From the NCBI GenBank assembly GCA_963804645.1, contig CAWDRG010000009.1, forward strand, positions 648,314-712,313: DNA of 64,000 nucleotides, read 5' to 3'. This document shows, piece after piece, positions 3,937 through 54,279 of this stretch. Origin of the DNA: an uncultured Bacillota bacterium (GTDB lineage Bacteria > Sysuimicrobiota > Sysuimicrobiia > Sysuimicrobiales > Segetimicrobiaceae). The notes below the pieces were generated by a model. The model worked only from the letters and a program-made list of their open reading frames with translations. It ran no database searches and was not told the DNA's origin. The number at the start of each line of letters is the position of its first letter. Position 1 is the stretch's first letter. Both the position numbers and the translations under genes were made by a program.

Positions 3937-5103
3937 ATGAGCGTAGAATTGTCAGATGATCAACGGTCGATCCGCGACGGCGTGCGCGATCTGTGCGAGA
4001 AGTTCCCCGATGCGTACTGGCGCAAACTCGACGAGACCGCCGCGTACCCGGAGGAATTCCTCAAGGCGCTCTCGGCGGGCGGCTGGCTCGCCGCGCTCAT
4101 TCCCGAGGAGTACGGCGGGACCGGGCTCGGCATCACGGAAGCGTCGGTCATCCTTGAGGAGATCAACCACTCCGGGGGCAACGCCGGCGCGTGCCACGCG
4201 CAGATGTACATCATGGGGACGGTGCTCAGGCACGGGAGCGAGGAGCAGAAGCGGCGGTGGCTGCCCGAGATCGCGTCCGGGGCCCTGCGCCTGCAGGCGT
4301 TCGGCGTGACCGAGCCGGCCGCCGGCTCGGAGACGACGCGGATCCAGACGACCGCGGTGCGCCGGGACGGCCGCTACATCGTCAACGGCCAGAAGGTGTT
4401 CATCTCCCGGGCCGAGCACTCGGAATTGATGCTCCTGCTCGCGCGCACGACCCCGTACGAGGAACTCAAGGACAAGACGCGCGGTCTCTCGGTGTTCATG
4501 GTGGACCTTCGGGAGGCGGTCGCGCGGGGCACGGTGCAGATCAAGCCGATCCGCACGATGATGAACCACCATTCGACCGAGCTGTTCATCACCGACCTCG
4601 AAATCCCCGCCGAGAACCTGATCGGCGAGGAGGGCCTGGGCTTCCGCTACATCATCGACGGGTGGAACGCGGAGCGGATCCTGATCGCCGCGGAGTCGAT
4701 CGGGGACGGACGCTGGTTCATCGAGCGGGCATCGAAGTACGCGAAGGAGCGCGTCGTGTTCGGGAAGCCGATCGGCGCGAACCAGGGGGTGCAGTTTCCG
4801 CTCGCGCTCGCCCACGCGCACCTCGAGGCCGCGAACTTGATGCGGTTCCACGCGGCGGGCCTGTTCGATCAGGGGAAGCGCTGCGGCGCCGAGGCGAACA
4901 TGGCCAAGCTGCTCGGAGCGGACGCTGCGTGGGAGGCCGCGAACGCGTGCCTCGACGCGCACGGCGGCTACGGGTTTGCCGCGGAGTACGACGTCGAGCG
5001 CAAGTTCCGGGAGACCCGGCTGTACACGGTCGCCCCGGTCAGCAACAATCTCGTGCTCGCCTACCTGGGGCAGCACGTGCTGGGCCTGCCGCGGTCCTAC
5101 TGA
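3937..5103 (+). CDS. acyl-CoA dehydrogenase family protein
   Basis: 389 aa with typical acyl-CoA dehydrogenase architecture: N-terminal helical domain, central beta-barrel (GSETTRIQTTAVRRDGRYIVNGQKVFIS) and C-terminal helical domain (...DAHGGYGFAAEYDVERKFRETRLYTVAP). GGAGGA precedes the ATG at 3937. An alternative ATG lies at 3925. Confidence 0.85.
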   Translation: MSVELSDDQRSIRDGVRDLCEKFPDAYWRKLDETAAYPEEFLKALSAGGWLAALIPEEYGGTGLGITEASVILEEINHSGGNAGACHAQMYIMGTVLRHGSEEQKRRWLPEIASGALRLQAFGVTEPAAGSETTRIQTTAVRRDGRYIVNGQKVFISRAEHSELMLLLARTTPYEELKDKTRGLSVFMVDLREAVARGTVQIKPIRTMMNHHSTELFITDLEIPAENLIGEEGLGFRYIIDGWNAERILIAAESIGDGRWFIERASKYAKERVVFGKPIGANQGVQFPLALAHAHLEAANLMRFHAAGLFDQGKRCGAEANMAKLLGADAAWEAANACLDAHGGYGFAAEYDVERKFRETRLYTVAPVSNNLVLAYLGQHVLGLPRSY

Positions 5104-5122
5104 GGATCCCGAGGCCGCGCCG

Positions 5123-6376
5123 ATGGGGGGCAACCGGATGACGCGCCGAAACACGAAGCAGGCCGACGACCGCAGCGCGGCGCCGACGGCCGGGATCCTG
5201 GGCGGGATTCGCGTCCTCGACCTGACCCGCAACATCGCCGGGCCGTACTGCGCGATGATCCTCGGCGATCTCGGCGCCGACGTCATCAAGGTGGAGCGGC
5301 CGGGGAGCGGGGACGACTGCCGCGAGTGGCGGCCTCCGTCGTGGCACGGGTACAGCACCACGTTCGTCAACTTCAACCGCAACAAGCGCAGCCTGGCCGC
5401 GGACCTCGACAGCGCGGACGGCCAGGAGATCGTGCGCCGGCTCGCCCGGCGGGCGGACGTCGTCGTGGAGAGCTTCCGCACCGGGAGCCTCGCGAAGCGC
5501 GGCCTCGATTACGCGCAGGTGCGCGCCGACAATCCCCGCGTCATTTACTGTTCGATCACCGGGTTCGGCTCGACCGGCCCGCTGCGGAACCGGCCCGGGT
5601 ACGACCCGATCGTCCAGGCCTACTCCGGGATCATGAGCACCACCGGCGAGCCCGGCCGCGCTCCGGCGCGGACGGGTCCGTCCATCGTCGACAACGGCGC
5701 GGGGATGTGGTGCGCGCTCGCGGTGCTCGCCTCGCTGTACGCCCGCGAGCGCACCGGCGAGGGCAGCCGCATCGAGACCAGCCTGCTCGAGACCGGCGTG
5801 GCGTGGATGGGATACCACCTGCTCGGCTATCTGGGCACCGGCCGGGTCCCCGGCCCGGTGGGATCCAAGGCGGTGATGATCGCGCCGTACGAGGGCTTCA
5901 AGACGCGCGAGGGCTACCTGCAGCTCGCGGCGGGGAACGACCAGATCTTCAGGCGGCTCTGCGACGTCCTCGAGGTGCGTGAGCTTCTGTCGGACGCGCG
6001 GTTCGGCACCAACGCGGACCGGGTCACCAATCGCGACGCGCTCCACGAGCTGCTCGAGGCCCGCTTCGTCGCCCGCACCGCGCGGGAGTGGGAGGACATC
6101 CTGCTCGAGCACGACGTCCCGTGCAGCTGCGTACGGACGCTCGACCAGGTGGCCGCCGACCCGCAGGTCGAGGCGCTCGACATGCTGCCCGCGGTGCCCT
6201 ATCCGCCGATCCCGGATCTGCGGCTGGTCAACCAGGCGTTCCAGATCAACGGACAGCGCGCATCCCGCCTGGAGCCGCCTCCGGAATTGGGGCAGCACAC
6301 CGACGAAGTCCTCGCGGAATGCGGCTACACGGCGGATGAGATCGCGGTCCTGCGGCGGGAGAACGTCGTCGGCTGA
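5123..6376 (+). CDS. CoA-transferase family III (CaiB/BaiF/Frc-like)
   Basis: GIRVLDLTRNIAGPYCAMILGDLGADVIKVERPGSGDDCREW... matches the family-III CoA-transferase N-terminal signature, with the typical interlocked-dimer length of about 415 aa. Sits 20 nt downstream of the acyl-CoA dehydrogenase. Confidence 0.85.
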   Translation: MGGNRMTRRNTKQADDRSAAPTAGILGGIRVLDLTRNIAGPYCAMILGDLGADVIKVERPGSGDDCREWRPPSWHGYSTTFVNFNRNKRSLAADLDSADGQEIVRRLARRADVVVESFRTGSLAKRGLDYAQVRADNPRVIYCSITGFGSTGPLRNRPGYDPIVQAYSGIMSTTGEPGRAPARTGPSIVDNGAGMWCALAVLASLYARERTGEGSRIETSLLETGVAWMGYHLLGYLGTGRVPGPVGSKAVMIAPYEGFKTREGYLQLAAGNDQIFRRLCDVLEVRELLSDARFGTNADRVTNRDALHELLEARFVARTAREWEDILLEHDVPCSCVRTLDQVAADPQVEALDMLPAVPYPPIPDLRLVNQAFQINGQRASRLEPPPELGQHTDEVLAECGYTADEIAVLRRENVVG

Positions 6377-10653: not shown

Positions 10654-11835
10654 ATGGATGATCTGAACGCGCTGAAGCGCAGGGTGCGCGGCACCGTGGA
10701 CGAGATGCGGGACGTATTGGTCTCGCTCAGCCGGCGGATCCACGAGACGCCCGAGCTCGGGATGCAGGAGCGCCAGGCGGCGCAGTGGCTGACCGCGATG
10801 TTGCGCGACGCCGGGTTCGAGGTCACGCAGCCGATCGCGGGCATGGAGACGGCGTTCCGGGCCGACGTGCCCGGGTCGGCGTCGCGGCCGCACGTCGCGC
10901 TGCTCGCGGAGTACGACGCGCTGGCCGGGGTCGGGCACGCGTGCGGGCACAACCTGATCTGCATGGCGAGCGTCGGCGCCGCGGTCGCGCTCCACCGCGC
11001 GATTCCGCGGCTGCCCGGCACGCTGACCGTGCTTGGGACGCCCGCCGAGGAGACCGCGGGCGGCAAGGTGCCGATGGTCGAGCAGGGCGTGTTCGACGGC
11101 GTCGACGCCGCGATGATGTTCCATCCGTCGAAGTCCAACTGGTGGGTGCGCGGCGCGTTGGCCGCGCAGGGGCTCACGATCACGTTCCACGGGCGGTCGT
11201 CCCACGCCGCCGCGGCGCCGGAGAAGGGCATCAACGCGCTCAACGCGCTGCTCCTGACGTACCACGCGATCGACTCGCTGCGGCAGCACGTCACGAGCGA
11301 CGTGCGCATCCACGGGGTCATCACGCACGGCGGCGACGCGGCCAACGTGGTGCCGGCGCTCGCGGTCGGGGAGTTTCTCGTGCGCGCGAACACCCAGGCG
11401 GCGCTCGTCGGCGTCATGGCCCAGGTCCAGCGCTGCGCGGAGGGCGCGGCGGTCGCGACCGGCGCGCGCGTCGAGATGAAGACGGGCGCCGTCTACGCCG
11501 AGCGCAACAACAACCGCACGCTCGCCGGACTGTTCGGCGACAACATGCGCGAGGTCGGCGTCGAGGGTGAGGAGCCGGCCGCGTCCGGCGGCGTCGGGTC
11601 GTCCGACATCGGCAACGTCAGCCTCGTGGTACCGACGATTCACCCGTACGTGAAGATCACCGACGACGCGGCCGGGCACACGCCCGAGTTTCGCGAGGCG
11701 TCGGCGTCCGAGCGCGGCTACACCGCGATGCTGAACGCCGCGAAGGGCCTCGCCACGACGGCGCTCGACGTCATGTACCGCCCCGGGGCCGTGGACGAGC
11801 TGTGGGCGGAGTTCCACGCGAGCCAGCGGCGCTGA
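10654..11835 (+). CDS. M20D-family amidohydrolase/peptidase (AbgB / hippurate-hydrolase-like) paralog 1
   Basis: 393 aa. The HACGHN metal-binding motif, GTPAEE, and the dimerisation-domain region are conserved. About 70% identical to the paralog at 24179..25369. Confidence 0.85.
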   Translation: MDDLNALKRRVRGTVDEMRDVLVSLSRRIHETPELGMQERQAAQWLTAMLRDAGFEVTQPIAGMETAFRADVPGSASRPHVALLAEYDALAGVGHACGHNLICMASVGAAVALHRAIPRLPGTLTVLGTPAEETAGGKVPMVEQGVFDGVDAAMMFHPSKSNWWVRGALAAQGLTITFHGRSSHAAAAPEKGINALNALLLTYHAIDSLRQHVTSDVRIHGVITHGGDAANVVPALAVGEFLVRANTQAALVGVMAQVQRCAEGAAVATGARVEMKTGAVYAERNNNRTLAGLFGDNMREVGVEGEEPAASGGVGSSDIGNVSLVVPTIHPYVKITDDAAGHTPEFREASASERGYTAMLNAAKGLATTALDVMYRPGAVDELWAEFHASQRR

Positions 11836-15342: not shown

Positions 15343-17343
15343 ATGGACGTCACGCGCACCAAGGCGAAGCCCGCCACGCGGGCGATCACGATCGAGGATC
15401 TCATGGAGTTCCGGATTCCCAACGATCCCCAGATCTCGCCGGACGGGTCCCTCGTGGTCTGTCCGGTGACGGCCGTCGACGCGCCGTCCAACGGGTACCG
15501 GACGCACCTGTGGATCGTGCCGATCGACGGCGCGCCGTGGCAGCTCACGGCGGCGGCGGCGCGCGACGTCAGCCCCCGCTGGTCTCCGGACGGCACGCGC
15601 GTGGCGTTCGTCTCCGACCGCGGCGGCAGCAAGCAGCTGTGGGTGATCGCGGCCACGGGGGGCGAAGCGCGCGCGCTCACGTCCGGGAAGCTGGCCCCGG
15701 GAGAGCCCGTCTGGTCTCCCGACAGCCGGTGGATCGCGTTCGTCGGCAAGCCCGAGCCGGAGGCCGGGCAGGAAGAGAGCGACGTGCGCGTGATCTCGCG
15801 GCTGCGCTACAAGCAGGACGGCGAGGGCTTCTGGGACGGCCGATGGAAGCAGCTGTTCGTCGTGGCCGCGGACGACGGCGCGCCGCGGCAGGTGACGCGG
15901 GGCGAGCACGATCACATCGCCCCGGCGTGGTCGCCGGACGGGCGGTCGCTGGCCTACGCCGGAAACCCCGCACCCGACGCGGATCTGAGCGGCGTGAGCG
16001 ACGTGTGGGTCGTGCCGGTCGACGGCGGGAAGCCGGCGCGGCGGCTGACGGAAGGCGTCGGGCCGGTGCAGCAGCCGGCCTGGTCGCCGGACGGGTCCCG
16101 GATCGCGTACCTCGGGCACGACAACGAGTACTGGGGGGCGACGCACCTGCGGGTGTGGGTCGTGCCAGCGGCGGGCGGGGCGCCAGAGTGCCTCACGCGG
16201 GGATACGAGCGCAGCATCGGACATCATTTGAGCGGCGACGTCCGTCCGATGCCGTCGTCCGGGGGACTCACGTGGGCGCCCGGCGGCGGCCGGATCTACT
16301 TCCTGGTGACGGACGGCGGAAACACCCAGGTGGCGTCCGTCTCGACGGGAAGCGGCGAGGTGCGCCTCGAGACGCGGGGCGACCACGAGCTAGTGGGATG
16401 CTCGCTGGATCGCGCGGCGCGCCGCGTCGCCTGCGTGGAGAGTGATCCGGTGTCGCCGGGTGAGGTGGCGGTCGCCGACCTCGACGGGGCCGAGTCGGGC
16501 GCCGTCCGGCGCCTCACGCGGTGGAACGCGGCGCTCGTCGACGGCCTCGCCCTCAGCCGGCCCGAGCGGTTCGAGTGCCGCGGCGCCGACGGGTGGCCGA
16601 TCGAAGGGTGGGTAATGAAGCCCGCGGGGATCGGGCCCGGCGTGCGCGTGCCCGCGGTGCTCGAGATTCACGGCGGACCGCACAGCACCTACGGCAACGG
16701 ATTCATGCACCAGTTTCAGCTGCTGTGCGCTGCCGGCTACGGCGTGATCTACTCGAACCCCCGCGGCAGCCACGGCTACACGCAGGCGTTTACCGCGGCG
16801 ACTCACCACGATTGGGGCGGCAAGGACTACGAGGATCTCATACTGGCGCTGGATCACGCGCTCGGCGCGCACGCCTGGATCGACCCCGATCGGCTCGGCG
16901 TCGCCGGCGGCAGCTATGGGGGCTACATGGTCAATTGGATGATCGGCCACACCCAGCGGTTTCGGGCCGCGGTGGCGCTCCGCAGCACCTGCGACCGCTA
17001 CAGTCAGTGGGGCACGTCCGACATGGGCATGGAGAACGGACGCTGGGAGTTTCCGGGCGACCCCTGGACCGCGGAGGGCTTTTACCGGGAGCGGTCGCCG
17101 CTCACGTACGTGGCGCAGATGCGGACGCCGCTGCTCTTGACGCACGGCGAGAATGATCTGCGCTGCCCGATCTCCCAGTCGGAGCAGCTCTTCGTTGCGC
17201 TGGTCAAGCAGGGCACGCCGACCGTGTTCGTGCGGTTTCCCGGCGAGAGCCACAACATGTCGAGCGCGGGAAAGCCCAAGCACCGCATCGAGCAGCTCAA
17301 GCACATCCTGGGGTGGTTCCGGAAATATCTGGTCGGCGGGTAG
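15343..17343 (+). CDS. S9-family serine peptidase (prolyl oligopeptidase / acylaminoacyl-peptidase type) with N-terminal beta-propeller
   Basis: Repeated SPDGS/WSPDG propeller blades in the N-terminal half. C-terminal alpha/beta-hydrolase domain with the nucleophile elbow GGSYGG, HGENDLRCP and ESHN. Confidence 0.85.
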   Translation: MDVTRTKAKPATRAITIEDLMEFRIPNDPQISPDGSLVVCPVTAVDAPSNGYRTHLWIVPIDGAPWQLTAAAARDVSPRWSPDGTRVAFVSDRGGSKQLWVIAATGGEARALTSGKLAPGEPVWSPDSRWIAFVGKPEPEAGQEESDVRVISRLRYKQDGEGFWDGRWKQLFVVAADDGAPRQVTRGEHDHIAPAWSPDGRSLAYAGNPAPDADLSGVSDVWVVPVDGGKPARRLTEGVGPVQQPAWSPDGSRIAYLGHDNEYWGATHLRVWVVPAAGGAPECLTRGYERSIGHHLSGDVRPMPSSGGLTWAPGGGRIYFLVTDGGNTQVASVSTGSGEVRLETRGDHELVGCSLDRAARRVACVESDPVSPGEVAVADLDGAESGAVRRLTRWNAALVDGLALSRPERFECRGADGWPIEGWVMKPAGIGPGVRVPAVLEIHGGPHSTYGNGFMHQFQLLCAAGYGVIYSNPRGSHGYTQAFTAATHHDWGGKDYEDLILALDHALGAHAWIDPDRLGVAGGSYGGYMVNWMIGHTQRFRAAVALRSTCDRYSQWGTSDMGMENGRWEFPGDPWTAEGFYRERSPLTYVAQMRTPLLLTHGENDLRCPISQSEQLFVALVKQGTPTVFVRFPGESHNMSSAGKPKHRIEQLKHILGWFRKYLVGG

Positions 17344-17379
17344 AGGCGCACGGGCCGGACGCGCGCCCGCGCCGGCGGG

Positions 17380-17922
17380 TCAGGGCTGTGCGTGCCGCGC
17401 GTACTGCCAGAGCGCCCGGTCGAGCGTCCGCATCGTGATGCCGCACCGCGACGCGGTGCCGCGGCACCACAGCGTGTAGCGCCGCCAGAACTCGAACTCG
17501 TACGTGGAGGGCGGCGACGCGATCCCGGCGGACCAGAGCGCCCGCACGTCCAGGATCGGGTACGGCTGCCGGTGGGTCCAGTGGAGGATCGCCGAGGCGA
17601 TCGGCCAGCCGACGCCCTGCAGCAGCGTGAGGACGGTGATGCGCAGCCGCTCGTTCGGCGTCGACAGCGCGGTCGCGGAGATGGCCCGGATGTCGGCGGC
17701 CTCGTTGCGCGCGCAGAGCGGCTGCGACCGCGGCGTCTTCCACCGCGCCAGCGCGAGGAACTCGGCTTTGGTCAGCCATCCACGCGCGCGCGCGCGGGCC
17801 GCGACGCCGGCTTCGAGCAGGGCGTCCTGCGACGCGTCGAACCGTGCGGCCCACCGCGGGATGTCGCGCGCCGGGAAGCGCAGGGCAAACTCCCACGGGA
17901 CGGCGCGGGTCACGCGACTCAA
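17380..17922 (-). CDS. hypothetical protein with helix-hairpin-helix-like motif
   Basis: 180 aa. LLQGVGWPIASAILHW resembles an HhH (LPGVG..TA..IL) element. No confident family assignment. Last gene of a three-gene minus-strand unit. Confidence 0.45.
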   Translation of the reverse strand: MSRVTRAVPWEFALRFPARDIPRWAARFDASQDALLEAGVAARARARGWLTKAEFLALARWKTPRSQPLCARNEAADIRAISATALSTPNERLRITVLTLLQGVGWPIASAILHWTHRQPYPILDVRALWSAGIASPPSTYEFEFWRRYTLWCRGTASRCGITMRTLDRALWQYARHAQP

Positions 17923-17961
17923 CCGCCTTTGTTCAGCGGTGGGGGGCGATCAGGCCGGCGG

Positions 17962-18754
17962 TCACCCGCGCCCCGCCTGATCGGCCGGGCGCTCCCGCCG
18001 CGGGCGCCGCATGAGCCCCGTGAGGAACCCCGCCGCGACCGCGAGGGTCTGCCGGCGCGCCTGCACCTCGTCCCGCGCGTTGCGCCAGCGCCGGCCGAGC
18101 TCCGTCAGGTCCGCGTCGATCGCCGCCCGCAGTTCCGTCAGATGTTTTTGAGGATCTCGTTGCGCAGCCATTGGATGTCGCTCCTCACCTGGGCGGCGAC
18201 GGCGTGCAAGCGCCGCAGCGTGAACCCGCGTATGCCGATCGCGACCAGCACGGCGATGATGACGAGCGTCCCCGCGAACGTGATCAGGGCGGCGAGCCAC
18301 GGCGGCAGCGTGAGCGCCAGCAGCAGCACCACGGTGAGAAGGATGAGTCCGACCGCGTACACGCCGATGACCGCGGCGAGCCCGATGCACACGAGTCCGC
18401 GGACGATCCCGCGCACCGTCGCGCGCGCCTCGTCCTGGGCGAGGTCGCGTAGGCCCGCGCCATCGCCGCGACGTTCGCCACAAGCCGCTGAATGATTGCC
18501 GCGGCCGACTCGTCGCGCGTCGGCGCGTCTGTGCCGCCGCGTGACGATCCGGTCGGCAGATCGCTGGCCATGCGCGTCACTCCCTCGCTCGGGTGCTGCC
18601 CGGATCTCGTTCCGGGGGTTGTTCGCCGCCCCGGCGCGGATGTCCCGCACCCCGCGCCGCGGGCCCGGCGCCGCCGGCGGCGCGCTATCGCGCTTTGGTG
18701 ATCAGGGCGACGTAGAGCGGTCCGCGCGGCGGCAGAAACCGGGTCGCGGTCCAT
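17962..18754 (-). pseudogene. holin-X-like (actinobacterial holin family III-type) small membrane protein, apparently frameshifted
   Basis: Three minus-strand frames each carry part of a coherent protein: MASDLPTGSS...IIQRLVANVAAMARAY, then ...LRDLAQDEARATVRGIVRGLVCIGLAAVIGVYAVGLILLTVVLLLALTLPPWLAALITFAGTLVIIAVLVAIG (two TM helices), then MAAQRDPQKHLTELRAAIDADLTELGRR.... A small two-TM protein with at least one frameshift near 18440 and 18170. Confidence 0.35.
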
Positions 18755-19416
18755 CCGGTGCCGCGCAGGATCGCCCGCATCTCATCGCGGGACACGAGGA
18801 GATAGTCGAACCACGGCGTCGCGTAGCGCCGGTACCGGACCCTGATCCGCGCCTGCCCCGGCAGTCTGCCGCGGCGCCTGTTCGCGCGGTGATACGCGCG
18901 ATGGGCCGGATTGTCGGTGTCGTGGGGGTCGAGACTCTCCGCGAGAATGCGGGCGTCCGGATCCGTGATCGCGTGCAGCCGCGCGAGCAGCCGCCGCGCC
19001 CGCGCGCGACTTCCAAAGAGCCCGAAGTTGTTGCCGAGCATGAGGACGGTGCCGAACGTCCCGAGCGACGGGCCGACGTCGCCGATGGACAGGACCCTCA
19101 CGTGTCTGAGCCCGCGGCGGCGGCACACCGCGACGGCGAGCGGGGACACGTCGATGCCGAGCACGTCGAGCCCGCGGCGCTGGAGATAGAGGGCGTGCCG
19201 GCCGGCTCCGCAGCCGATGTCCAGCACCCGGCCCCGCGCGAGCCGCACGGCCTGCCGGTGGCGCGGCGGCCAGTCGCGGTACTCGGCGAGGAACTGCTCG
19301 CGTCCGCCCGAGATATCGACGTAGCCGTCGTCGCGCTCGATCACCTCGTACCCGCGGCCACGGCCCCGTAGGTAGTCGCGGAGCGCGTGGCCGAAGGCGT
19401 CGTGCGTGTCGCGCAT
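18685..19416 (-). CDS. class I SAM-dependent methyltransferase
   Basis: VLDIGCGAGRHALYL (motif I) and the following motifs are conserved. 243 aa. Confidence 0.8.
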   Translation of the reverse strand: MRDTHDAFGHALRDYLRGRGRGYEVIERDDGYVDISGGREQFLAEYRDWPPRHRQAVRLARGRVLDIGCGAGRHALYLQRRGLDVLGIDVSPLAVAVCRRRGLRHVRVLSIGDVGPSLGTFGTVLMLGNNFGLFGSRARARRLLARLHAITDPDARILAESLDPHDTDNPAHRAYHRANRRRGRLPGQARIRVRYRRYATPWFDYLLVSRDEMRAILRGTGWTATRFLPPRGPLYVALITKAR

Positions 19417-19449
19417 CCGGAGTCTCGCGTCCTCGGGCGTGTCGGCGGG

Positions 19450-19632
19450 TCAGTCGGGCGGCACGAACCGATAGACGGGCTCGAGCATCCTCGACGCGTC
19501 GTCGGGCCGGAGGCGCGCCATCTGCGCCTTGATCATCGCCACCCGTTCGTAGATCGCGTCGGCGTCGGCGTCGTCGAGGCGCAGGCCCTGCTGCGCGGCC
19601 TCGGCCGCGAGCCACTCGCGCGTGAAGGACGT
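19450..19632 (-). CDS. GatC-like small protein (60 aa), putative small subunit partner of the upstream amidase
   Basis: MTSFTREWLAAEAAQQGLRLDDADADAIYERVAMIKAQMARLRPDDASRMLEPVYRFVPPD. Its ATG overlaps the amidase stop (ATGA). Helix-loop architecture and the ...LEPV... tail resemble GatC/AtzG-type subunits. Confidence 0.5.
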   Translation of the reverse strand, partial: TSFTREWLAAEAAQQGLRLDDADADAIYERVAMIKAQMARLRPDDASRMLEPVYRFVPPD

Positions 19633-21024
19633 CATGCGGTCACCTCCAGGGCGGGACGCCGTGTGTGCCATTCGGTGTGCTGCTCGTACGCGCGGCCGAT
19701 CCGGAGCAGCGTCGTCTCGTCGAACGCCTTGCCGACGAGCTGCATCGCGACCGGCAGCCCGCCGGCCGTAAACCCGCAGGGCACGCTGAGCGCCGGATGT
19801 CCGGTCAGGTTGAAGGGGATCGTGAACTTGCCGATGTCCGCGGGAGGCCCGGCCGCCTCGACCTCCAGCGTAAACGCCGGCGCCGGCATCGTCGGGGTGA
19901 CGATCGCGTCGACGCGCCGGAGCGCCTGCGAGAGGTCCTGACACCACAGGGCGCGGATCTGGGCGGCCTGCTGATACTCCGCGGCGGTGAAGAACGCGCC
20001 CGACGCGATGCGCCGGCGTGCGCGGGGTCCGTACTCCTCCCACTGCCGCCGCATCCGCGGGCGCGTGCACGCCGAACGCCTCCGCGGCGAGCAGCAGCCA
20101 GCCGGCCGGGGCGGCGTCCGCGGCGCGCGGCAGGTCGACGGGCTCGACCCGGGCGCCCAGCTCCTCGAGGCGCGTGAGCGCCGCGCGCACGAGGCGGCCG
20201 ACCTCCGGATCGATCTGGTCGTAGAAGTACTGCGCCGGCACTCCGAGGGTCAGGTCCCGCACGCCCGCGTCGATGTCCGCGGCGTAGTCCGGCACCGGCC
20301 GGCCGGACGCGGTGGGATCGAGCGGGTCCGGGCCTGCCATCGCCCGGAGCAGGACGGCGCAGTCCGCGACCGAGCGGGCCATCGGTCCGACGTGGTCCAT
20401 GCTCCAGCTGAGCGGGAACACGCCGTGCCGGCTGACCCGTCCGTAAGTGGGTTTGAGCCCGACGATGCCGCAGTAGCTCGCGGGCCCGCGGATCGACCCG
20501 CCGGTGTCGGACCCCGTCGCGAGGATCGCGAGCCCCGCCGCGAGCGCGTTCCCGGATCCGGCGCTCGAGCCGCTCGTGTACCGCGACGTGTCCCAGGGAT
20601 TCCGGGGAACGCCGAAGACGTCCGTGCCGCCGGTGGCAAACTCCGTCGTGTTGGTCTTGCCGAGCAGGATCATGCCCGCGTCCGCGAGCCGCCGCACGAC
20701 GGTCGCGTCCGCGTCCGGCACGAAGTCCAAGAGGGTCCGCGAGTGGCACGTCGTCCGGATGCCCCGCGTGAAGATGATGTCCTTCTGGGCGACCGGCAGC
20801 CCGTGCAGCGGGCCCCGCCGGCGGCCGGCGGCGATCTCCCGCTCGGCCTCGCGCGCGTCGCGCAGCGCCGTCTCCCCGCACACCGTGATGTAGCTGTGGA
20901 GCGTGTCGTTGTAGTGCGCGATCCGCTCGAGCAGCGCCGTCACGATCTCGACGGGCGAGAGCGAGCGGCGCTCGATGCGGTCACTGAGCTCGACCGCCGA
21001 CAGGTAGCACAACTCGGAGTCCAT
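19632..21024 (-). CDS. amidase-signature family amidase (GatA-like) paralog 1; reading frame interrupted by an apparent +1 frameshift near 20055-20064
   Basis: N-terminal 350 aa (MDSELCYLSAVELSDRIERRSLSPVEIV...GSDTGGSIRGPASYCGIVGLKPTYG) are in the track frame 19450..21114. The C-terminus (RRQWEEYGPRARRRIASGAFFTAAEYQQA...VGKAFDETTLLRIGRAYEQ) is in frame 19632..20054. Deleting one G in CCGCGGGCGC would join them as ...AFGVHAPAMRRQWEEYGP.... GGGGAGGG lies upstream of the ATG at 21024. Confidence 0.7.
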
Positions 21025-21164
21025 CGAATCCCTCCCCGGGGGCGCGGCGATCCGCGGTGCGTCTTCTCCCGCCGTGATTCTCCTCGCGGCCCCGCGCTTC
21101 CCCCGCCCGCTCACCGTAGGAACGTGCGCGCGCCGCGTGGAACGTCAGGCGGGTTAGCGCGTTC

Positions 21165-21653
21165 ATGTCGTGGGACCCTCGGAGGCGCATCGTGTCCGAA
21201 GTAGAACGAAAGCTCCAGGCGATGGGGTTGACGCTCCCCGACGCTCCGGCGCCGGTGGCCAACTACGTCCGCGCCGTGCAGGTCGGCGACCTCGTGTTCT
21301 TGTCGGGCCACGGTCCGACCAAGGACGGCGCGGCGGCGTATCGGGGCAAGCTGGGTCGGGAATTCTCGGTGGCGGAGGGCTACGAGGCGGCGAAGCTCGT
21401 GATGCTCAACTGCCTCGCGTCGCTCAAAGAGGCGATCGGCGATCTCGACCGGGTCCGGCGCATCGTGAAGCTGCTCGCGATGGTGAACAGCACGCCCGAC
21501 TTCGTCCGGCAGCCGGAGGTGATCAACGGCGCGTCCGATCTGCTGGTCGCCCTCTACGGGGATCGCGGTCGGCACGCGCGGTCGGCGGTCGGCATGGTCG
21601 CGCTGCCGTTTGACATCCCGGTCGAAATTGAGATGATCGTCCAGGTCTCCTAG
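21165..21653 (+). CDS. RidA/YjgF-family protein (reactive-intermediate deaminase)
   Basis: YjgF-fold motifs (VFLSGHGP, ...SAVGMVALPFDIPVEIEMIVQVS at the C-terminus). The start is uncertain (the Met at 21222 is an alternative). Divergent from the amidase. Confidence 0.75.
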   Translation: MSWDPRRRIVSEVERKLQAMGLTLPDAPAPVANYVRAVQVGDLVFLSGHGPTKDGAAAYRGKLGREFSVAEGYEAAKLVMLNCLASLKEAIGDLDRVRRIVKLLAMVNSTPDFVRQPEVINGASDLLVALYGDRGRHARSAVGMVALPFDIPVEIEMIVQVS

Positions 21654-24178: not shown

Positions 24179-25369
24179 GTGGACGACCTCAACGCGCTCA
24201 AGGACCGCGTCTGCAAGGAAGTGGACGGACTCAGCGGCGATCTCGTCGCGCTCGGCAAGCGGATCTTCGAGCACCCCGAGTTTCAGTTCGAGGAGCGCCA
24301 GGCCTGCGCGTGGCTGACCGAGTTCCTGAAGGCGGCCGGGTTCGCGATGGAGGGCAACATCGCCGGAATGGAGACCGCGTTTCGCGGGACCGTCCGCGGC
24401 TCGCGGGCGCGCCCGCACGTGGCGCTGCTCGCGGAGTACGACGCGCTGCGCGGGCTCGGCCACGCGTGCGGCCACAACCTGATCTGCACCGCCAGCGTCG
24501 GCGCGGCGGTCGCGCTGCACCGCGCCGTGCCCTCGCTGCCCGGGACGCTGACGATCCTCGGCACCCCCGCCGAGGAGGGCGGCGGCGGCAAGGTGATCAT
24601 GGCCGAGGCGGGCATCTTCGAGGGCATGGACGCCGTGATGATGTTTCACCCGTCGCGCTCGAACTGGTGGGCGCGCGGCGCGCTCGCGTCGCAGCGCCTC
24701 ACGGTCAAGTTCCACGGCAAGTCCTCGCACGCGGCCGCGATGCCGGAGCGCGGCATCAACGCGCTGAACGCCCTTCTCCTCACGTTTCACGCGATCGACT
24801 CCCTCCGCCAGCACGTGACGAGCGACGTGCGCATCCATGGGATCGTCACCAAGGGCGGCGACGCGCCGAACGTCGTGCCCGAGTACGCGGAAGGGCGGTT
24901 CAGCATACGCGCGGCGACGCGCAGCGCCCAGCGGGAGGTCATGGTGAAGGTGAAGCGGTGCGCGGAGGGTGCGGCGATCGCGACCGGCGCCCGGGTGGAG
25001 ATGGAGACCGGCCACACCTACGCGGAGCGCAACAACAGCCCGGTGCTCGTCGGGTTCTTCGGGGAGAACCTCGCCCGGCTCGGCGTCGAGGGCGAGGAGC
25101 CGCCGAAGTCGGGCGGCATCGGGTCCTCGGACATCGGCAACGTCAGCATGATCTGCCCGACGATCCATCCGTACCTCTCGATCGTCGACGGCGACGTGGC
25201 CGGCCACACTCCTGAGTTTCGAGAGGCGGCCGGCTCGGACCAGGGGTACCGCGCGATGCTGAACGCGGCGAAGGGGCTGGCGATGACGACCCTCGACGTG
25301 ATGTACCGGCCGGGCGCCGCCGACACCGCCTGGACGGCGTTTCGGGCGAGCGTCGGCGCGGCGACCTGA
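24179..25369 (+). CDS. M20D-family amidohydrolase/peptidase paralog 2
   Basis: GTG start with GAGGTGA upstream. Same HACGHN / GTPAEE architecture as 10654..11835. Confidence 0.85.
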   Translation: MDDLNALKDRVCKEVDGLSGDLVALGKRIFEHPEFQFEERQACAWLTEFLKAAGFAMEGNIAGMETAFRGTVRGSRARPHVALLAEYDALRGLGHACGHNLICTASVGAAVALHRAVPSLPGTLTILGTPAEEGGGGKVIMAEAGIFEGMDAVMMFHPSRSNWWARGALASQRLTVKFHGKSSHAAAMPERGINALNALLLTFHAIDSLRQHVTSDVRIHGIVTKGGDAPNVVPEYAEGRFSIRAATRSAQREVMVKVKRCAEGAAIATGARVEMETGHTYAERNNSPVLVGFFGENLARLGVEGEEPPKSGGIGSSDIGNVSMICPTIHPYLSIVDGDVAGHTPEFREAAGSDQGYRAMLNAAKGLAMTTLDVMYRPGAADTAWTAFRASVGAAT

Positions 25370-25388: not shown

Positions 25389-26855
25389 CTAGGCGGATCC
25401 GCGCGGCGCCGGCATCGGGGGGCGCCGGGTGTGCCAGTCCGTCGCGTCCTGGAACGCGCGGCCGAGATCGATCAGCGTCGCGTCCTCGAACGGTCCTCCC
25501 ACCAACTGGACCGCGGCCGGCAGGCCCGAGGTGCTGAAGCCGCAGGGCAGCGACAGCCCCGGCAGCCCCGCCAGATTCCCCGCGGGGGTGAGCGCGGCGT
25601 TGCCGCGCGCCGGCGGGAACGCCGGACCGGTGCGGGGCCGTTTGCCCGCGCGCGCCGGCCGCCACTCCGGATCGATCGGCTCGTCGACCCGCGGCGCGGG
25701 ACCCGGACGGGCCGGGGCGAGCAGGACGTCGACCTCGGTGAAGATGTGGGCGAACGCCTCCTGCAGCAGCCGGCGGACGCGCATCGCGTTCAGGTAGTCC
25801 CGGGCGGACACCTCGAGGCCCGCGACGAGGCCGAGCGCCTGCCGCTGGTCGGCCAGGTCCTTGAGGCGCGGGCTGTCGATCAGGTCCTGGAAGATCGTCG
25901 ATCCCTCGGCGCGGATGACGATCCTCGCCGCTGAATCGATCGGCAGCGGCGGGAGCGACACCTGGCGGAGACGCACCCCGAGCCGGCGGAACTCCCGGAC
26001 CGCCCCGTTGAGCGCGTCCCGGATCGACGGGTGGGCGGTCTCGTCGAAGTCCACCGGCGCGTAGCCGACGCGCAGCTCCGACGGTTTGCGGGGTCGCCGG
26101 TGCATCTCGAACCCGCGTCCGGCCGTTCCCGGGTCGCGCGGGTCGCCGCCCGCGATCGCCTCGAGCACGAGCCCGCAGTCCTCCGCGGTGCGGCACATCG
26201 GGCCGATCTTGTCCATCGTCCAGGCAAGCGCCATCGCGCCGTAGCGGCTCACGAGGCCGTAGGTCGGGCGCAGGCCGGTCACGCCGCAACTCGACGACGG
26301 CGAGAGGATCGAGCCCGAGGTCTCCGAGCCGATGCCGAACGGGACCATGCCGCCGCCCACCGCGGCCCCGGTGCCGCTCGAGGAGCCGCCGGTCCAGTGG
26401 TCGCGATTCCACGGGTTGCGCGCCGGTCCCGTCAGCGACGCCGACGGCCACCGATAGCCCCCTCCGCCCGCCAGTTCGATCATCGCCAGCTTGGCAGCGA
26501 GCACGGCTCCGGCACGTCGAAGCGACGTAATCACCGCGGCGTCGTAGTCGAAGATCTGCCGGGCAAATGGCGGCGCCCCCCAGGTTGTCGGGACGCCGCG
26601 GAGCGCCAGCAGGTCCTTCGCGCCGTACGGAATGCCGGTGAGGGGGCCTGCGCCGCGGGCGGCCCGCAGCCGGCGGTCGGCGGCCCGGGCCTCGCGCAGC
26701 GCGTGCTCGGGGAGCATCCGCGCGACGGCGTGGTAGCTCCGTCCCACGGTAGACAGGCGGTCGAGCGCGAGCCGCGTCAGTTCCATGGAGGAGATGCGCC
26801 GGCGCCGGAGCGCGCGGTGGAGCTCGCCGATCGTGGCGTACAGCGGATCGTTCAC
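25389..26855 (-). CDS. amidase-signature family amidase (GatA-like) paralog 2, intact
   Basis: GIGSETSGSILSPSSSCGVTGLRPTYG catalytic Ser-cisSer-Lys region. The full C-terminus (LPAAVQLVGGPFEDATLIDLGRAFQDATDWH) is in one frame. The track ORF extends to 27056 with an unlikely Arg/Pro-rich leader; it was trimmed to the GTG at 26855 (VNDPLYATIGELHRAL). The start is uncertain. Confidence 0.75.
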   Translation of the reverse strand: MNDPLYATIGELHRALRRRRISSMELTRLALDRLSTVGRSYHAVARMLPEHALREARAADRRLRAARGAGPLTGIPYGAKDLLALRGVPTTWGAPPFARQIFDYDAAVITSLRRAGAVLAAKLAMIELAGGGGYRWPSASLTGPARNPWNRDHWTGGSSSGTGAAVGGGMVPFGIGSETSGSILSPSSSCGVTGLRPTYGLVSRYGAMALAWTMDKIGPMCRTAEDCGLVLEAIAGGDPRDPGTAGRGFEMHRRPRKPSELRVGYAPVDFDETAHPSIRDALNGAVREFRRLGVRLRQVSLPPLPIDSAARIVIRAEGSTIFQDLIDSPRLKDLADQRQALGLVAGLEVSARDYLNAMRVRRLLQEAFAHIFTEVDVLLAPARPGPAPRVDEPIDPEWRPARAGKRPRTGPAFPPARGNAALTPAGNLAGLPGLSLPCGFSTSGLPAAVQLVGGPFEDATLIDLGRAFQDATDWHTRRPPMPAPRGSA

Positions 26856-43617: not shown

Positions 43618-44141
43618 CGGGTCTCTCCCACTCCTTCGAGTGACGGTGCTCGGCCGGCCGCCTGCTCCTGCAATACCTGCTCGCGTATTCCCCGGAGCCG
43701 AACCAGCCGTTCCTGCAGTTCCTTGTGAAGCTTCGCCAGCCGCGCCGTGCGCTCGTCAACGATGCGCATCTGAGACTGTGCCAGCGCCATGGCCTGATCG
43801 AGCAGCCCGAGGCGCGTCGCCGGATCCGTGGCCTGCTGGTACGCCTCGCGGATTTCCGCGCGCACCGCGTCCGCGTGGAGCGTTTCCTTGATCTCAGCGA
43901 GTGAAATGCCGAGGAGCGACTGCAACTCCTTGATCCTCAGCAGCAGGGCGATCTCCGCCTCGGTGAAGAGGCGAAACCCGCCGGCGGTTCTCCCTGAGGG
44001 GGACAGCAGACCCACTTCTTCGTAGTAGCGAATCGCGCGCGGAGTCAAGCTCGTCCGGCGGACAACTTCTTCCATGCGGTAGTTCGCTTGGGGTCCGGTG
44101 GGATCTTGCTCCTCTGAGATGGGTGCCTGACCGTCCGTCAT
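43614..44141 (-). CDS. MerR-family transcriptional regulator
   Basis: MEEVVRRTSLTPRAIRYYEEVGLLSP is a MerR HTH, followed by a coiled-coil dimerisation helix. Overlaps the hlyD start (ATGA). Likely regulates the emrAB-like operon. Alternative start at 44075. Confidence 0.8.
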   Translation of the reverse strand: MTDGQAPISEEQDPTGPQANYRMEEVVRRTSLTPRAIRYYEEVGLLSPSGRTAGGFRLFTEAEIALLLRIKELQSLLGISLAEIKETLHADAVRAEIREAYQQATDPATRLGLLDQAMALAQSQMRIVDERTARLAKLHKELQERLVRLRGIREQVLQEQAAGRAPSLEGVGETR

Positions 44142-44632
44142 CCGCTCATTCTCCTACCCAAAGCTTAATCAAATAGCGCTTTAGGGATTATAACATACTC
44201 TTCCGTTAACGTGACATTGCCCAAATTACTTCCGTTGTTGCCGCCCGTTTTCGGGGCGCCGGGACCGTCGCCATCCCTTCCGTCACGTAAACGAGAGATT
44301 CTACTCCTGCTCGCCGCCTGCCTTGACTTGCCTAGAATGGTTCGACCTGCCCCCCGAGGCGGTGCTGCCTCGGAAGGCGCCTGGTGACGCGGGTCGAGGC
44401 CGGCACTCACGGGGTGATTCGTCCGTTGAAACTGGCATCGCTTCTTGCTATGCGCCGGCCGGAGCAATCCTGTTCCGGATGCCTATATGTATTCGTATTC
44501 GCCTTCGACGTATAATCGAACACCGGTTCGCGTGGCGAAGGCGGCCGTTGCGCATGCGCGCCTGCGGGTATAAGATTCTCGTTGCCGCCCAAGGCGGCAG
44601 CGCGTGGGGGGCATAGCTGGGGGGATCGCGTC

Positions 44633-45496
44633 GTGCGACCGTCTTGGAGGGGCTACGTCAGCTTCGGGCTCGTGACGATTCCCGTTAAACTGTACACGGC
44701 GACCGAACAGAAAGACGTTCGGTTCCGACTGCTGCACACCGTCTGTCATACGCCCATCAAGAATCAGCGCTTCTGTCCTCACTGCGACCGCGTGATCGAA
44801 TGGGCCGACGTCGTCCGCGGGTACGAGGCGAGCAAGGGTCGCTTCGTGCTCGTGACCGACGAGGAGCTGGAGCAGATTCCGATCGACACCAGCGGCAACG
44901 TGAATATCGCCGGGTTCGTCGAACTCCAGGACATCGACCCGATCTACTACGAGCGGTCCTACTACGTCGCGCCGGACGAGGGCGGAGCCAAGGCGTTTCT
45001 CCTGCTCGAGGAGGCGCTGCGCGAGGCGAACCGGGTGGCGATCGGCAAAGTGGTGATTCGGGAGAAAGAGCAGCTCGTGTCGCTTCGCCCGTATCAAAAG
45101 GCGATGGTGCTGAGCACGCTGTTCTATGCCGACGAGGTGCGGTCGCTGTCCGGTCTGGAAGAACTGCCGGTGGAGGCCACGGTGCATCCCAACGAGCGGA
45201 AGATGGCCGTGCAGCTCGTGGAGAATCTCGCGATGGAGTTCAATGTCGAGGAGTTCAAAGACGAGTACCGTGATGCCCTCATGGCGATGATCAGTGCGAA
45301 GGGTAAGGGCGAGGAAGTCGCCGGGCCGAAAGAGGCGCCCGCCCCGGGCAAGGTCGTCGACCTGATGGAGGCGCTCAAGCGAAGTGTCGAGATGGCGAAG
45401 GGCAGCCATCGGCGGCCGGCGGCCGACGGCAAGAGCGCCCGCGCCGCGGGCCAGCAGCGGCGGGCGGCGGGCGGCATGCACGAGCGTCCGCGATAG
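44633..45496 (+). CDS. ku: Ku protein (non-homologous end-joining DNA-end binding)
   Basis: WRGYVSFGLVTIPVKLYTATEQKDVRFRLLH is the canonical Ku beta-barrel N-terminus. The C-terminal tail is basic. GTG start, trimmed from the track start at 44582. No ligD gene in the window. Confidence 0.85.
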   Translation: MRPSWRGYVSFGLVTIPVKLYTATEQKDVRFRLLHTVCHTPIKNQRFCPHCDRVIEWADVVRGYEASKGRFVLVTDEELEQIPIDTSGNVNIAGFVELQDIDPIYYERSYYVAPDEGGAKAFLLLEEALREANRVAIGKVVIREKEQLVSLRPYQKAMVLSTLFYADEVRSLSGLEELPVEATVHPNERKMAVQLVENLAMEFNVEEFKDEYRDALMAMISAKGKGEEVAGPKEAPAPGKVVDLMEALKRSVEMAKGSHRRPAADGKSARAAGQQRRAAGGMHERPR

Positions 45497-45528
45497 CGAT
45501 CGTCCCCAAGCGCACGCGCGTGACGCGC

Positions 45529-45558
45529 CGAACGGCGGCCCGGAAGGGCCGCCGTTCG
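45529..45558. terminator. bidirectional stem-loop terminator (13-bp perfect stem, GGAA tetraloop)
   Basis: CGAACGGCGGCCC-ggaa-GGGCCGCCGTTCG between the convergent ku (+) and substrate-binding-protein (-) genes. Confidence 0.6.
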
Positions 45559-45586
45559 GACTATCGTCGGAACTGCGCCGGCGCGC

Positions 45587-47197
45587 TTACTTCCAGGTCG
45601 CGTAGATCGCGGCCCACTTCTCGTTTGGCGTCACGCTCACGCCCTGCAGATGGTTGGTCGCGACCATGTAGAAGTCCTGACTCCAGAGGAAGATCCACGG
45701 CGCGTCCTTCCAGATCATCTGCTGCGCTTCCTTATACATCGCCTCGCGCTTCGTTTGATCCGGGACCGTCTGGGCCTGCAGCAACAGGTTGTCGACGTCG
45801 GTGTCCTTGTAGAACGACGGCGCCAGCCCGGTGGGCGGCCACTGCCCCGAGTAGAACTGGCCGAACAGCTCGCCGTCGGCGTCCAGGTACTGCGTCGCCC
45901 ACCCGAGGATGAAGATCTGAAGCGGGCTCTGCGCCAGCGGAGTCACCATCCACTTCACGTACGTCGGCCAGTCGGAGGTCTGGACGTTCGCCTGGATCCC
46001 GACGTTGCTGAGCTGCGCCGCGACCGCCTGGGCGAACTGATAGTCCTGGATGTACCGCCCCGTGGGGGTCCGGAAGTCGAGCTGGAAGCCCTGGGGGTAG
46101 CCGGCCTCCGAGAGCAGCTTCTTCGCCAGCGTCGGGTTGAACGGCCACCCGCCCGCCTGCAGCTTGGTGTATCCAAACAGCGCCGGGGTCGTCGGCGACT
46201 CGAGCACGTGCGCGAGGCCGAACAGCACGCTGTGGATGATCGCATCCTTGTTGATCGCGTAGTTGAGGGCCTGGCGTACCCGGACGTCCTTCAGCGGTCC
46301 GTATTGGTTGTTGAGCCCGATGAAGACGTCGCGGTCGCTCGCTCCGGAGATCACCGTGAGCGTGTTGTCCTTGCGGAGCGTGGGAACGTCCGGGGCGGGC
46401 GGTTCGTATGCCATCTGGACGTCGCCCGCGCGCAGCATGGTCTCGCGCGTGCCGGCGTTCGGCACGACGCGGAAGATCACCGTGTCGAAATACGGCTTCT
46501 TCCCCCAATAGTTCGGGTTCTTGACGAGCGTGATGTGGTCGCCGTGCACCCACTCCTTGAACACGTAGGGACCCGTCCCGGCATCCGTCGGGCCGAGCAC
46601 GATCTTGTCGTTGCCGATCTTCTTGACCGCGGTCGGCGAGAGGATCATCCCCGGCCCCGCGGCCATCCGCTCGAGCAGCGTCGGACTGGTCTGCTTGAGG
46701 TGCAGCACCACCGTATACGGATCCGGGGTGTCGATCCGGGTGGCGTCGATGTCGGTGAAGTAATACCGGTTCGGATTGCGCACGCTGGTGTCGAGCCACC
46801 GCTGGACGTTGAACTTCACCGCGTCCGCGTTGAAGTCGGTGCCGTCCTGGAACTTGACGCCCTGCCGCAGTTTAAACGTGTAGGTCAGCCCGTCGGGGCT
46901 CACCGTCCACGACGTCGCGAGCTGCGGCGTGAGCTTCGTATACTGGGGCTGGCCCGGTTCCACGCCCGAGCGCTCGTCGTTCGGCCAGATGAGCGAGTCG
47001 AACATGTATTCCACCATGTTGGACACGGTGGTGGTCGTCTGCCCTTCGGGGTCGAGCGTGTCGGCGTCGATGCCGACGGCGATCGTCAGGGTGGTCGGCG
47101 CGGCGGCGAATCCTCCCCGGGGGATCACGAGGAGCACCACCGCCACGACGCAGGCCACCAGCAGCGCGACGACGGGACGTACGGCCGATCGGATCAT
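45587..47197 (-). CDS. ABC transporter substrate-binding protein, family 5 (DppA/OppA-like)
   Basis: Signal peptide MIRSAVRPVVALLVACVVAVVLLV, then TLTIAVGIDADTLDP and ...FNVQRWLDTSV.... 536 aa. Confidence 0.85.
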   Translation of the reverse strand: MIRSAVRPVVALLVACVVAVVLLVIPRGGFAAAPTTLTIAVGIDADTLDPEGQTTTTVSNMVEYMFDSLIWPNDERSGVEPGQPQYTKLTPQLATSWTVSPDGLTYTFKLRQGVKFQDGTDFNADAVKFNVQRWLDTSVRNPNRYYFTDIDATRIDTPDPYTVVLHLKQTSPTLLERMAAGPGMILSPTAVKKIGNDKIVLGPTDAGTGPYVFKEWVHGDHITLVKNPNYWGKKPYFDTVIFRVVPNAGTRETMLRAGDVQMAYEPPAPDVPTLRKDNTLTVISGASDRDVFIGLNNQYGPLKDVRVRQALNYAINKDAIIHSVLFGLAHVLESPTTPALFGYTKLQAGGWPFNPTLAKKLLSEAGYPQGFQLDFRTPTGRYIQDYQFAQAVAAQLSNVGIQANVQTSDWPTYVKWMVTPLAQSPLQIFILGWATQYLDADGELFGQFYSGQWPPTGLAPSFYKDTDVDNLLLQAQTVPDQTKREAMYKEAQQMIWKDAPWIFLWSQDFYMVATNHLQGVSVTPNEKWAAIYATWK

Positions 47198-47367
47198 GGC
47201 TCACATCCCTCCTTCTTGCGTATGAGGCTATGCGGCCGGAGCCGCCGATCTGGGCGCGGAGGGTCCCGCGCGACAGGGCTATCTACAGTACGCGCTGCCG
47301 GGGAGGAATTCCTTTGGACGAGGCTTGCGGACTAGGCAGACGACTGCCACCGAAGTAGAATATGCCC

Positions 47368-47460
47368 CGGAGGGGTGCGAGAGCTCGGCTGAATCGGGCG
47401 GTCTCGAAAACCGCTAGGCGGGCAACTGCCTCGGGGGTTCAAATCCCTCCCCCTCCGCCA
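47368..47460 (+). tRNA. tRNA-Ser (anticodon CGA), class II with long variable arm
   Basis: GGAGGGG/CCCCTCC 7-bp acceptor stem, D stem CGA/TCG, anticodon stem GCGGT/ACCGC with loop CU-CGA-AA, long variable arm, T arm GGGGG-TTCAAAT-CCCTC, discriminator G plus encoded CCA. Confidence 0.85.
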
Positions 47461-48440: not shown

Positions 48441-48448
48441 GAGGAGAG

Positions 48449-54275: not shown

Positions 54276-54279
54276 ATCG

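Follow-up and report, generated by a model that had tools for sequence, protein, structure and literature searches.

The locus described here occupies positions 19450 to 21024 of a 64,000-nucleotide (nt) stretch of contig CAWDRG010000009.1 (assembly GCA_963804645.1; uncultured Bacillota bacterium), hereafter called the window, and consists of an amidase-signature gene with one frame change and, directly 3' of it, a small open reading frame (ORF). All coordinates are those of the window, and both genes lie on the minus strand. The amidase gene runs from 21024 to 19632 (-), and its translation shows a single frame change within 20058-20063. The first frame (21024..20056) gives 322-323 amidase residues (MDSELCY...AEAFGVHAPA), and the second, from 20057 or 20054 to 19632, gives the remaining 141 residues ((R)MRRQWEEYGPRARRRI...ALEVTA*). 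With the orthologue from locus L002 as the tblastn query (L and P numbers are our handles for homologous loci and proteins, respectively), residues 1-322 were placed in frame -2 and residues 322-463 in frame -3. The 5' segment thus comprises codons 1-322 (20059..21024 (-); MDSELCY...GVHAP), as also read from the translation and from the PF01425 match, and the 3' segment comprises codons 323-463 and the stop (19632..20057 (-); RMRRQWEEYG...ALEVTA*). The small ORF (MTSFTREWLAAEAAQQGLRLDDADADAIYERVAMIKAQMARLRPDDASRMLEPVYRFVPPD; 19450..19635 (-)), whose product resembles the GatC N-terminal domain, encodes 61 amino acids (aa) (MTSFTREW...LEPVYRFVPPD*). Its start codon (19635..19633) overlaps the amidase stop codon (19634..19632) in an ATGA junction, and a GGAGG Shine-Dalgarno sequence, read from the sequence at 19643..19647 (-), lies within the last amidase codons, 7 nt upstream of the ATG. 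The minus-strand translations thus reproduced the arrangement proposed in the initial annotation, an amidase with one frame change coupled through ATGA to a small ORF, with two corrections: the small protein had been given as 60 aa, and the repaired peptide as HAPAMRRQW, which is wrong by one residue, since the orthologues give the junction as ...GVHAPRMRRQW... and not ...HAPAMRRQW....

The repaired amidase matched the Pfam Amidase model PF01425 over the whole profile (positions 1-445 of 445; E = 2.2e-119, 399.9 bits, cut-off 27), and is a full-length member of the Amidase signature family, above the gathering score. The alignment of 66 homologues shows no variation at K81, S153, S154 and S177, which belong to the motifs ...AQKD... 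(K81), ...SGSSAGS... (S153-154) and ...TGGSIR... (S177). By homology, Lys81, Ser153-154 and Ser177 were assigned as the presumed Ser-cisSer-Lys catalytic triad. The best PDB matches of the amidase were GatA (4wj3_A, E = 9e-90), then peptide amidase and AtzE (6c62_A, E = 2.5e-59, 34% identity), and a fold search with the fused homologue described below agreed with this ranking, in which GatA comes first. The scores with the more specific models were all below the cut-offs: 365.4 bits with the gatA equivalog TIGR00132 (cut-off, 481.1), and 305.4 and 317.7 bits with the AtzE family models TIGR02715 (cut-off, 425.75) and NF006631 (cut-off, 461), respectively. In pairwise alignments, the insertion of about 20 residues of GatA (SSNLxRxDGxRYG) is missing from the amidase. 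Many of the homologues are labelled 'amidotransferase subunit A' by JGI; judged from the cut-offs and the insertion, the amidase is not a true GatA.

The small ORF represents a genuine and conserved gene family. Its close homologues (n = 17; 60-69 aa) are 70-87% identical, and the differences among them are in excess at the third codon position (92, 109 and 210 differences at codon positions 1, 2 and 3, respectively). An exhaustive profile search yielded 43 clusters at 50% identity with lengths of 58-96 aa, mostly about 60, apart from two repetitive proteins, and the family follows the pattern EWLRAEAxRQGLxLxDxDLxAI...K/RxxLAxxRPxxTExLEPxYRF. All of the named members are annotated as 'hypothetical protein', no Pfam or NCBIfam model exists for the family, and the hosts are uncultured 'bacterium' entries and Armatimonadota metagenome-assembled genomes (MAGs). 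Scanning genome and metagenome contigs with the small-protein pattern added only 1 and 5 loci, the broad alignment being too variable for this purpose. In the six-frame translation of the window, no second copy was found with the family hidden Markov model (HMM): 19450-19635 was found with E = 7e-26, and the next match had E = 0.65.

In every gene context examined, the small ORF lies directly 3' of an Amidase gene of 461-479 aa. Most loci have the 4-nt overlap; the overlap is 32 nt in L012, and the two genes are separated by 1 nt in L014 and by 14 nt in L016. The order, the amidase gene and then the small gene, is constant in the family and is the reverse of those of gatC-gatA and atzG-atzE, in agreement with the initial annotation, which had called a downstream small gene uncommon. 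The surrounding genes differ widely: RidA and a methyltransferase in the window, L001, L002 and L023; Peptidase_S58 and SpoVR in L006; RidA, a lyase, PALP and M20 in L010; an M19 peptidase, an isochorismatase, SBP_bac_5 and aminotransferases in L012; an aminotransferase and SBP_bac_5 in L014; and a hydantoinase, SBP_bac_5, Opp permeases and an M55 peptidase in L016. No gatB was present in any of the gene contexts examined. A Logan contig of 2152 nt encodes P0162 (574 aa), a homologue in which a linker of about 30 residues joins the C-terminal end of the amidase to the small domain; this looks like a natural fusion of an amidase with a GatC-like domain. The amidase and the small gene are therefore a conserved, translationally coupled pair, and the small ORF, with its conserved family and strict linkage, was borne out as a genuine partner gene.

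The relationship of the small protein to GatC and AtzG was examined by profile-profile comparison and by structure prediction. The GatC profile was built from five PDB sequences, of which that of Staphylococcus aureus was verified as 2df4_C and the others were taken from printed alignments. With hhalign, family positions 1-59 were aligned with GatC 1-58 (58 columns; score 41.3, P = 3.9e-7, probability 92.8%), while the controls gave only a score of 11.7 for the reversed family (P = 0.24, 11 columns) and 12.9 for the best of 60 column shuffles (P = 0.081). The score of the family with AtzG plus one DUF4089 protein was 23.3 (P = 7e-4, 31 columns), and E was 0.11 with the single AtzG sequence. 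In the benchmark comparison of GatC with AtzG, the score was 18.6 (P = 7.5e-3, 37 columns); the family is thus nearer to GatC than AtzG is. In a PDB search with the broad family profile, Aquifex GatC was matched with E = 0.23 in a colinear alignment that starts at residue 1. The AlphaFold2 model of the window protein (predicted local distance difference test score (pLDDT), 84) has helices at residues 6-15 and 22-42, and when it was searched with Foldseek against 350,542 PDB chains, the top five matches were four GatC chains (9a62_B, 2f2a_C, 2dqn_C and 2df4_C) and AtzG (6c62_C), the last as the second-best match; further GatC and GatF chains stand lower in the list. The match covers only GatC 1-58: a full-length GatC has about 95 aa, with a C-terminal part contacting GatB, and accompanies gatA and gatB. 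From these alignments and models, we regard the small protein as homologous to the N-terminal ~58 residues of GatC and as GatC/AtzG-like, as the initial annotation had supposed from its helix pattern and tail.

Several results weigh against this assignment. The Pfam and NCBIfam scans of the window protein returned no match; specifically, Pfam GatC (PF02686) was not matched at E <= 1, and Pfam AtzG-like (PF13318, formerly DUF4089) was not matched either. When 46 members were scanned, the matches were at noise level (GatC, E = 0.036, and AtzG-like, E = 0.13, in one of the 46 members each; Hda_lid, E = 0.001), and the PDB search with the narrow family profile found neither GatC nor AtzG. The individual Foldseek E-values, 0.5-1.3, are not significant alone; such values are to be expected of a model of 61 residues, for which the ranking is the evidence. 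In the model of P0162, the fused domain has a pLDDT of 68-79 and its LEPPYRF tail about 47; this model lacked alignment depth over the small domain, where MAFFT did not place the small proteins, and its outcome there is no more than suggestive.

Taken as a whole, the data are in our opinion likely to be explained by a GatA-like amidase with a GatC-like structural subunit, the frameshift being a consensus error (see below). The two-gene unit would consist of a 463-aa amidase-signature hydrolase and a translationally coupled 61-aa protein like the N-terminal part of GatC. As in the analogous cases of GatC/GatA and AtzG/AtzE, the small protein is probably a non-catalytic structural partner that would bind the amidase as AtzG binds AtzE, and the amidase may need it for folding or solubility. 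For such a complex, the strict linkage, the overlapping genes and the one natural fusion are indirect support. Without AtzG, AtzE is insoluble, and a descent of AtzEG from GatCA is assumed (PMC6219798); GatC has been proposed to be required for the folding, and is considered necessary for the stability, of GatA (PMC4027206). Since the small protein is devoid of the C-terminal half of GatC and no gatB lies nearby, the pair would act as a stand-alone catabolic amidase and not as a tRNA amidotransferase. Its substrate would be an imported small amide or a peptide-like nitrogen compound, because the neighbourhoods hold Opp/Dpp-type binding proteins and permeases, M19, M20, M55 and S58 peptidases, aminotransferases, a hydantoinase and RidA.

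Two other views of the pair were considered. It might be the genuine GatCA of the organism and belong to a tRNA-dependent amidotransferase whose GatC is shortened, as the GatA subunits among the best PDB matches and the JGI naming of many homologues would suggest. This is very improbable, given a TIGR00132 score more than 100 bits under its cut-off, the missing GatA insertion, the absence of the C-terminal half of GatC, the absence of gatB from the contexts examined and the catabolic gene neighbourhoods. The small protein might instead be independent, for example a regulator or an adaptor for some other partner, and merely travel with the amidase gene; the failure of the GatC and AtzG sequence HMMs to detect it, and the weak matches of a few members to unrelated helical families (Hda_lid, E = 0.001), are on the side of this view. 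We consider it improbable, though less so than the former: the small gene stays strictly linked to that of the amidase however much the surrounding genes differ, the overlap of the two genes is what translational coupling would lead one to expect, the two are fused in one homologue, and the hhalign and Foldseek matches are specifically to the two known amidase-binding mini-subunits. The structural partner of a catabolic amidase is thus the role that we prefer for the small protein.

The frame change in the amidase gene is due to a surplus base at 20058..20063 (-), where DNA alignments show CACGCGCCCGCGGATG in the window and CACGCCCCGCGGATG or CACGCGCCCCGGATG in relatives. When aligned as GCGCCCgCGGATG in the window against GCGCCC-CGGATG in relatives, the window has one extra base, which can be placed anywhere in 20058-20063 depending on the natural allele taken as the reference. 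It is absent in L001, L002, L003, L006, L018, L019, L020, L023, L024, L025 and L029, and also in all other orthologues whose amidase spans the site. Intact amidases have 463 aa in L002, L003, L020 and L022, 471 in L006, 462 in L010, and 473-476 in L012, L014 and L016. Three independent assemblies (JGI Ga0311301_10024090 and the NCBI MAGs GCA_035297025.1 and GCA_036824425.1) encode the protein P0083 (463 aa) intact, and the repaired window amidase is identical to it at 461 of 463 residues; against the two residue differences stand seven synonymous changes. The longest ORF at the locus (19450..21114; 554 aa) leads from the N-terminal part of the amidase through an out-of-frame stretch into the small protein in frame; it is a false fusion produced by the frameshift and could be reported by gene callers. 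Exact look-ups of the small protein, the RidA protein and the 524-aa shifted product of the window returned no record.

Five independent contigs (L018, L023, L024, L025 and L029) are 99.0-99.65% identical to the window, and against these the window has five private single-base insertions or deletions (indels), all within 18450-20062 (1.6 kb); each contig lacks every one of them in the range that it covers, and three of the five contigs code for an intact amidase of 463 aa that matches the repaired protein at 461 of 463 residues. They are +1 at 20062 (the amidase frameshift), -1 at 19497 and +1 at 19490 (a compensating pair 7 nt apart inside the small ORF), +1 at 19427 (intergenic) and -1 at 18450. 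Together with one substitution, also private to the window, the pair in the small ORF (19487..19497 (-)) changes ...DD(G)VETLEPV... to ...DDASRMLEPV..., and E48, conserved in at least 90% of the close small-protein family, falls in the altered stretch. The last indel shifts the frame of the neighbouring Phage_holin_3_6-family gene (144 aa; 18141..18571 (-)), in which tblastn and the translation of the orthologue locate one missing base at about 18446-18450; this holin-like gene is intact in L002, L018, L023, L024 and L029. No further indels occur in the other 12.5 kb aligned between the window and L023.

The spectrum of these changes points to their origin. At nearly all of the substitution differences between 16.1 and 21.2 kb, the window agrees with the outgroups (L002, L003, L004, L019, L020 and L001), so that its private changes are almost only indels; in 5.3 kb, the window lineage has five private indels against at most four private substitutions. 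Such a spectrum is the product of indel-prone consensus calling and not of natural decay. At the indel sites, moreover, the window is a hybrid of L002-type and L023-type alleles on a scale of 10 nt: CAC GCG CCC / GCGG ATG is the gap-union of GCG CCC CGG and GCC CCG CGG, and TAC GC GAC is the gap-intersection of TAC GCC GAC and TAC CGC GAC. The two allele types, L002 and L023, both come from one JGI sample. A neighbouring S9 peptidase is recorded, identical, on a contig longer than 1 Mb, which suggests, and is compatible with, a long-read source. The amidase frameshift is hence most probably a consensus error of this assembly.

A real lesion is the more serious of the two alternatives to such an error. 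Here the frameshift would be a very recent inactivating insertion of 1 bp and, like the lesions in the small ORF and the holin-like gene, would belong to a catabolic module that is dispensable and in the course of being lost. In the sister population, L018 and L029, two independent contigs that are 99.8% identical to the intact L023, share a nonsense allele (GAG>TAG at codon 349 of the amidase), and this null allele segregates there; because it is replicated, natural null alleles of the amidase exist, and a real lesion in the window is therefore possible. A TCG>TAG change in L011, where its twin L010 is intact, is a further point on this side, and 20 other window genes appear intact (10 by full Pfam coverage and the rest by comparison with orthologues or Pfam), so the assembly is not error-ridden in general. 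The check for further frameshifts, by analysis of the GC content at third codon positions in each frame and of the Pfam coverage of 10 suspicious neighbouring ORFs, all of them intact, was not exhaustive. Both the nonsense allele and the intact genes weigh against a consensus error. Natural decay, however, gives many more substitutions than indels, unlike the five private indels against at most four private substitutions; with only 2 of 463 residues differing from P0083 against seven synonymous changes, the inactivation would have to be extremely recent; and the -1/+1 pair 7 nt apart with its adjacent mismatch, as well as the fine-scale allele hybrids, resemble consensus artefacts. On balance we hold a real lesion to be unlikely. 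The other alternative, a programmed +1 ribosomal frameshift with a role in regulating the synthesis of the amidase, has in its favour only that both halves of the amidase are otherwise intact and in adjacent frames, and deserves almost no credence. The site is not conserved, all of the orthologues spanning it (including the 99%-identical contigs) have a single frame, and the zero frame has neither a stop nor another pause signal near the site, remaining open for about 200 codons until the stop of the small ORF. Among the three origins that the initial annotation had offered for the frame change, a sequencing or assembly error thus emerges as the most likely, a recent inactivation is kept as possible, and a programmed shift is effectively refuted by the orthologues.

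Other lesions and differences were noted in the same region. The nonsense codon of the sister population lies at L018:1672 and L029:5089, equivalent to window position 19979. The stop in L011 (MAG GCA_037024435.1) is at L011:3034, amidase codon 140; the Logan contig L010 is 99.94% identical, and three of the other four differences between the two cluster in a poly-G-like stretch, which suggests a sequencing error. In L001 (ENA contig ..._np1212), the amidase at 4615-6004 has two frameshifts (frames 1, 3 and 2) and the surrounding genes are intact. The region 16100-21200 of the window holds 39 of the 49 differences from L023 (about 0.8% divergence, vs 0.06% in 21.2-29 kb), a pattern suggestive of a tract of recombination or of a switch between strains in one lineage.

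Next to the pair, an intact gene for an S-adenosylmethionine-dependent methyltransferase (18685..19416 (-)) is syntenic with L002 and L023, and a RidA/YjgF-family gene (21192..21653 (+)), divergent from the amidase gene, is a neighbour conserved in close relatives and in L010. A second amidase gene, paralogue 2 (25389..26855 (-)), encodes a protein 34% identical to the first amidase and has no GatC-like partner in the window; the initial annotation, which had said so, is confirmed within the window by the family HMM search of the six-frame translation. The window also contains two M20 peptidase paralogues, at 10654-11823 (+) and 24179-25369 (+), with which an M20 protein of L001 shares 70% (first) and 94% (second) identity, and two PALP enzymes; with two M20, two PALP and two amidase genes, the catabolic gene set is partly duplicated. 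Farther away, positions 44000-58000 have a GC content of 59-65% (about 72% elsewhere) and few long ORFs, and include a tRNA-Ser(CGA) gene (47369-47460) and a match to group II intron D1-D4 (55210-55347); this stretch looks like an island inserted at a tRNA gene, and an rRNA operon was considered for its part at 47-52 kb and rejected. A cobalamin riboswitch (Rfam RF00174, 94.7 bits; 60161-60373 (+)) lies upstream of a 636-aa ORF (60420-62330).

Amidase-signature enzymes are widely mined for biocatalysis and bioremediation, and the precedent of AtzE shows that some amidases are insoluble without a tiny GatC-like partner missed by annotation pipelines. The present family would carry this principle over to another clade, one in which the gene order is reversed, and its profile could flag amidases for co-expression with the partner; it also adds a data point on how GatCA, a system of translation, was recruited for catabolism. 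The frameshift is of importance only as a warning, since it produces a spurious 554-aa 'fusion' ORF and a wrong pseudogene call. We lean slightly towards the view that the pair represents an undescribed lineage of 'vestigial' GatCA-derived heteromeric amidases, nearer to GatCA by sequence than AtzEG is, in which the mini-subunit gene has moved downstream and has sometimes been fused. If this is true, the role of the GatC N-terminal part as a scaffold or chaperone for the GatA fold would have been kept more than once outside translation, and a 60-aa partner that annotation has missed may be required by many of the metagenomic amidases regarded as 'insoluble' or 'orphan'.

In a full-text search of the literature, no paper describing GatC-like partners of amidases beyond AtzG and GatF was found, and the small-protein family falls outside the Pfam GatC and AtzG-like models, as does the amidase below the GatA and AtzE cut-offs. 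The most distant of the systems compared is yeast GatFAB, in which a small non-catalytic subunit (GatF; PDB 4N0H) likewise scaffolds the GatA fold (PMC4027206). GatF (4n0h_F) was a weaker Foldseek match (rank 37), and it differs from the small protein in its fungal origin, its larger size and its place in a true tRNA amidotransferase. The likeness to GatCAB (PDB 2DF4, 3H0L, 4WJ3, 3KFU and 3AL0) is greater: among proteins of solved structure, the amidase is most closely related to GatA subunits (E = 9e-90), and the small protein is colinear with GatC 1-58, including the motif ...(D)xE(G)(V/L)EPxY. In contrast to GatCAB, the pair has no GatB, the small protein is without the C-terminal ~40 residues of GatC, the amidase has no GatA-specific insertion and is below the gatA equivalog cut-off, and the genes stand in the order A then C, not C-A-B, in a catabolic genomic context.

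Together with GatA-GatC, the closest known system is AtzE-AtzG, the 1-carboxybiuret hydrolase of Pseudomonas sp. ADP (PDB 6C62 and 6C6G). Both systems combine an amidase-signature enzyme with an adjacent gene for a non-catalytic GatC-related mini-protein of 60-70 aa, both have no GatB and are set in the catabolism of nitrogen compounds, and AtzE was among the best structural matches in the fold search with the fused homologue (template modelling score, 0.91 normalised to AtzE). The differences are also clear. The atzG gene is upstream of atzE (the order atzG/DUF4089, atzE, hpxZ was read in pADP-1 and in a plasmid of P. aeruginosa), whereas the small gene is downstream here, and atzH/hpxZ is missing from its neighbourhood. 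The amidase shares only 34% identity with AtzE and scores under the cut-offs of the AtzE family models, and the small protein, undetected by PF13318, is closer to GatC (hhalign P = 4e-7) than to AtzG (P = 7e-4). AtzE-AtzG occurs in Proteobacteria, whereas the pair described here occurs in uncultured 'bacterium' and Armatimonadota MAGs.

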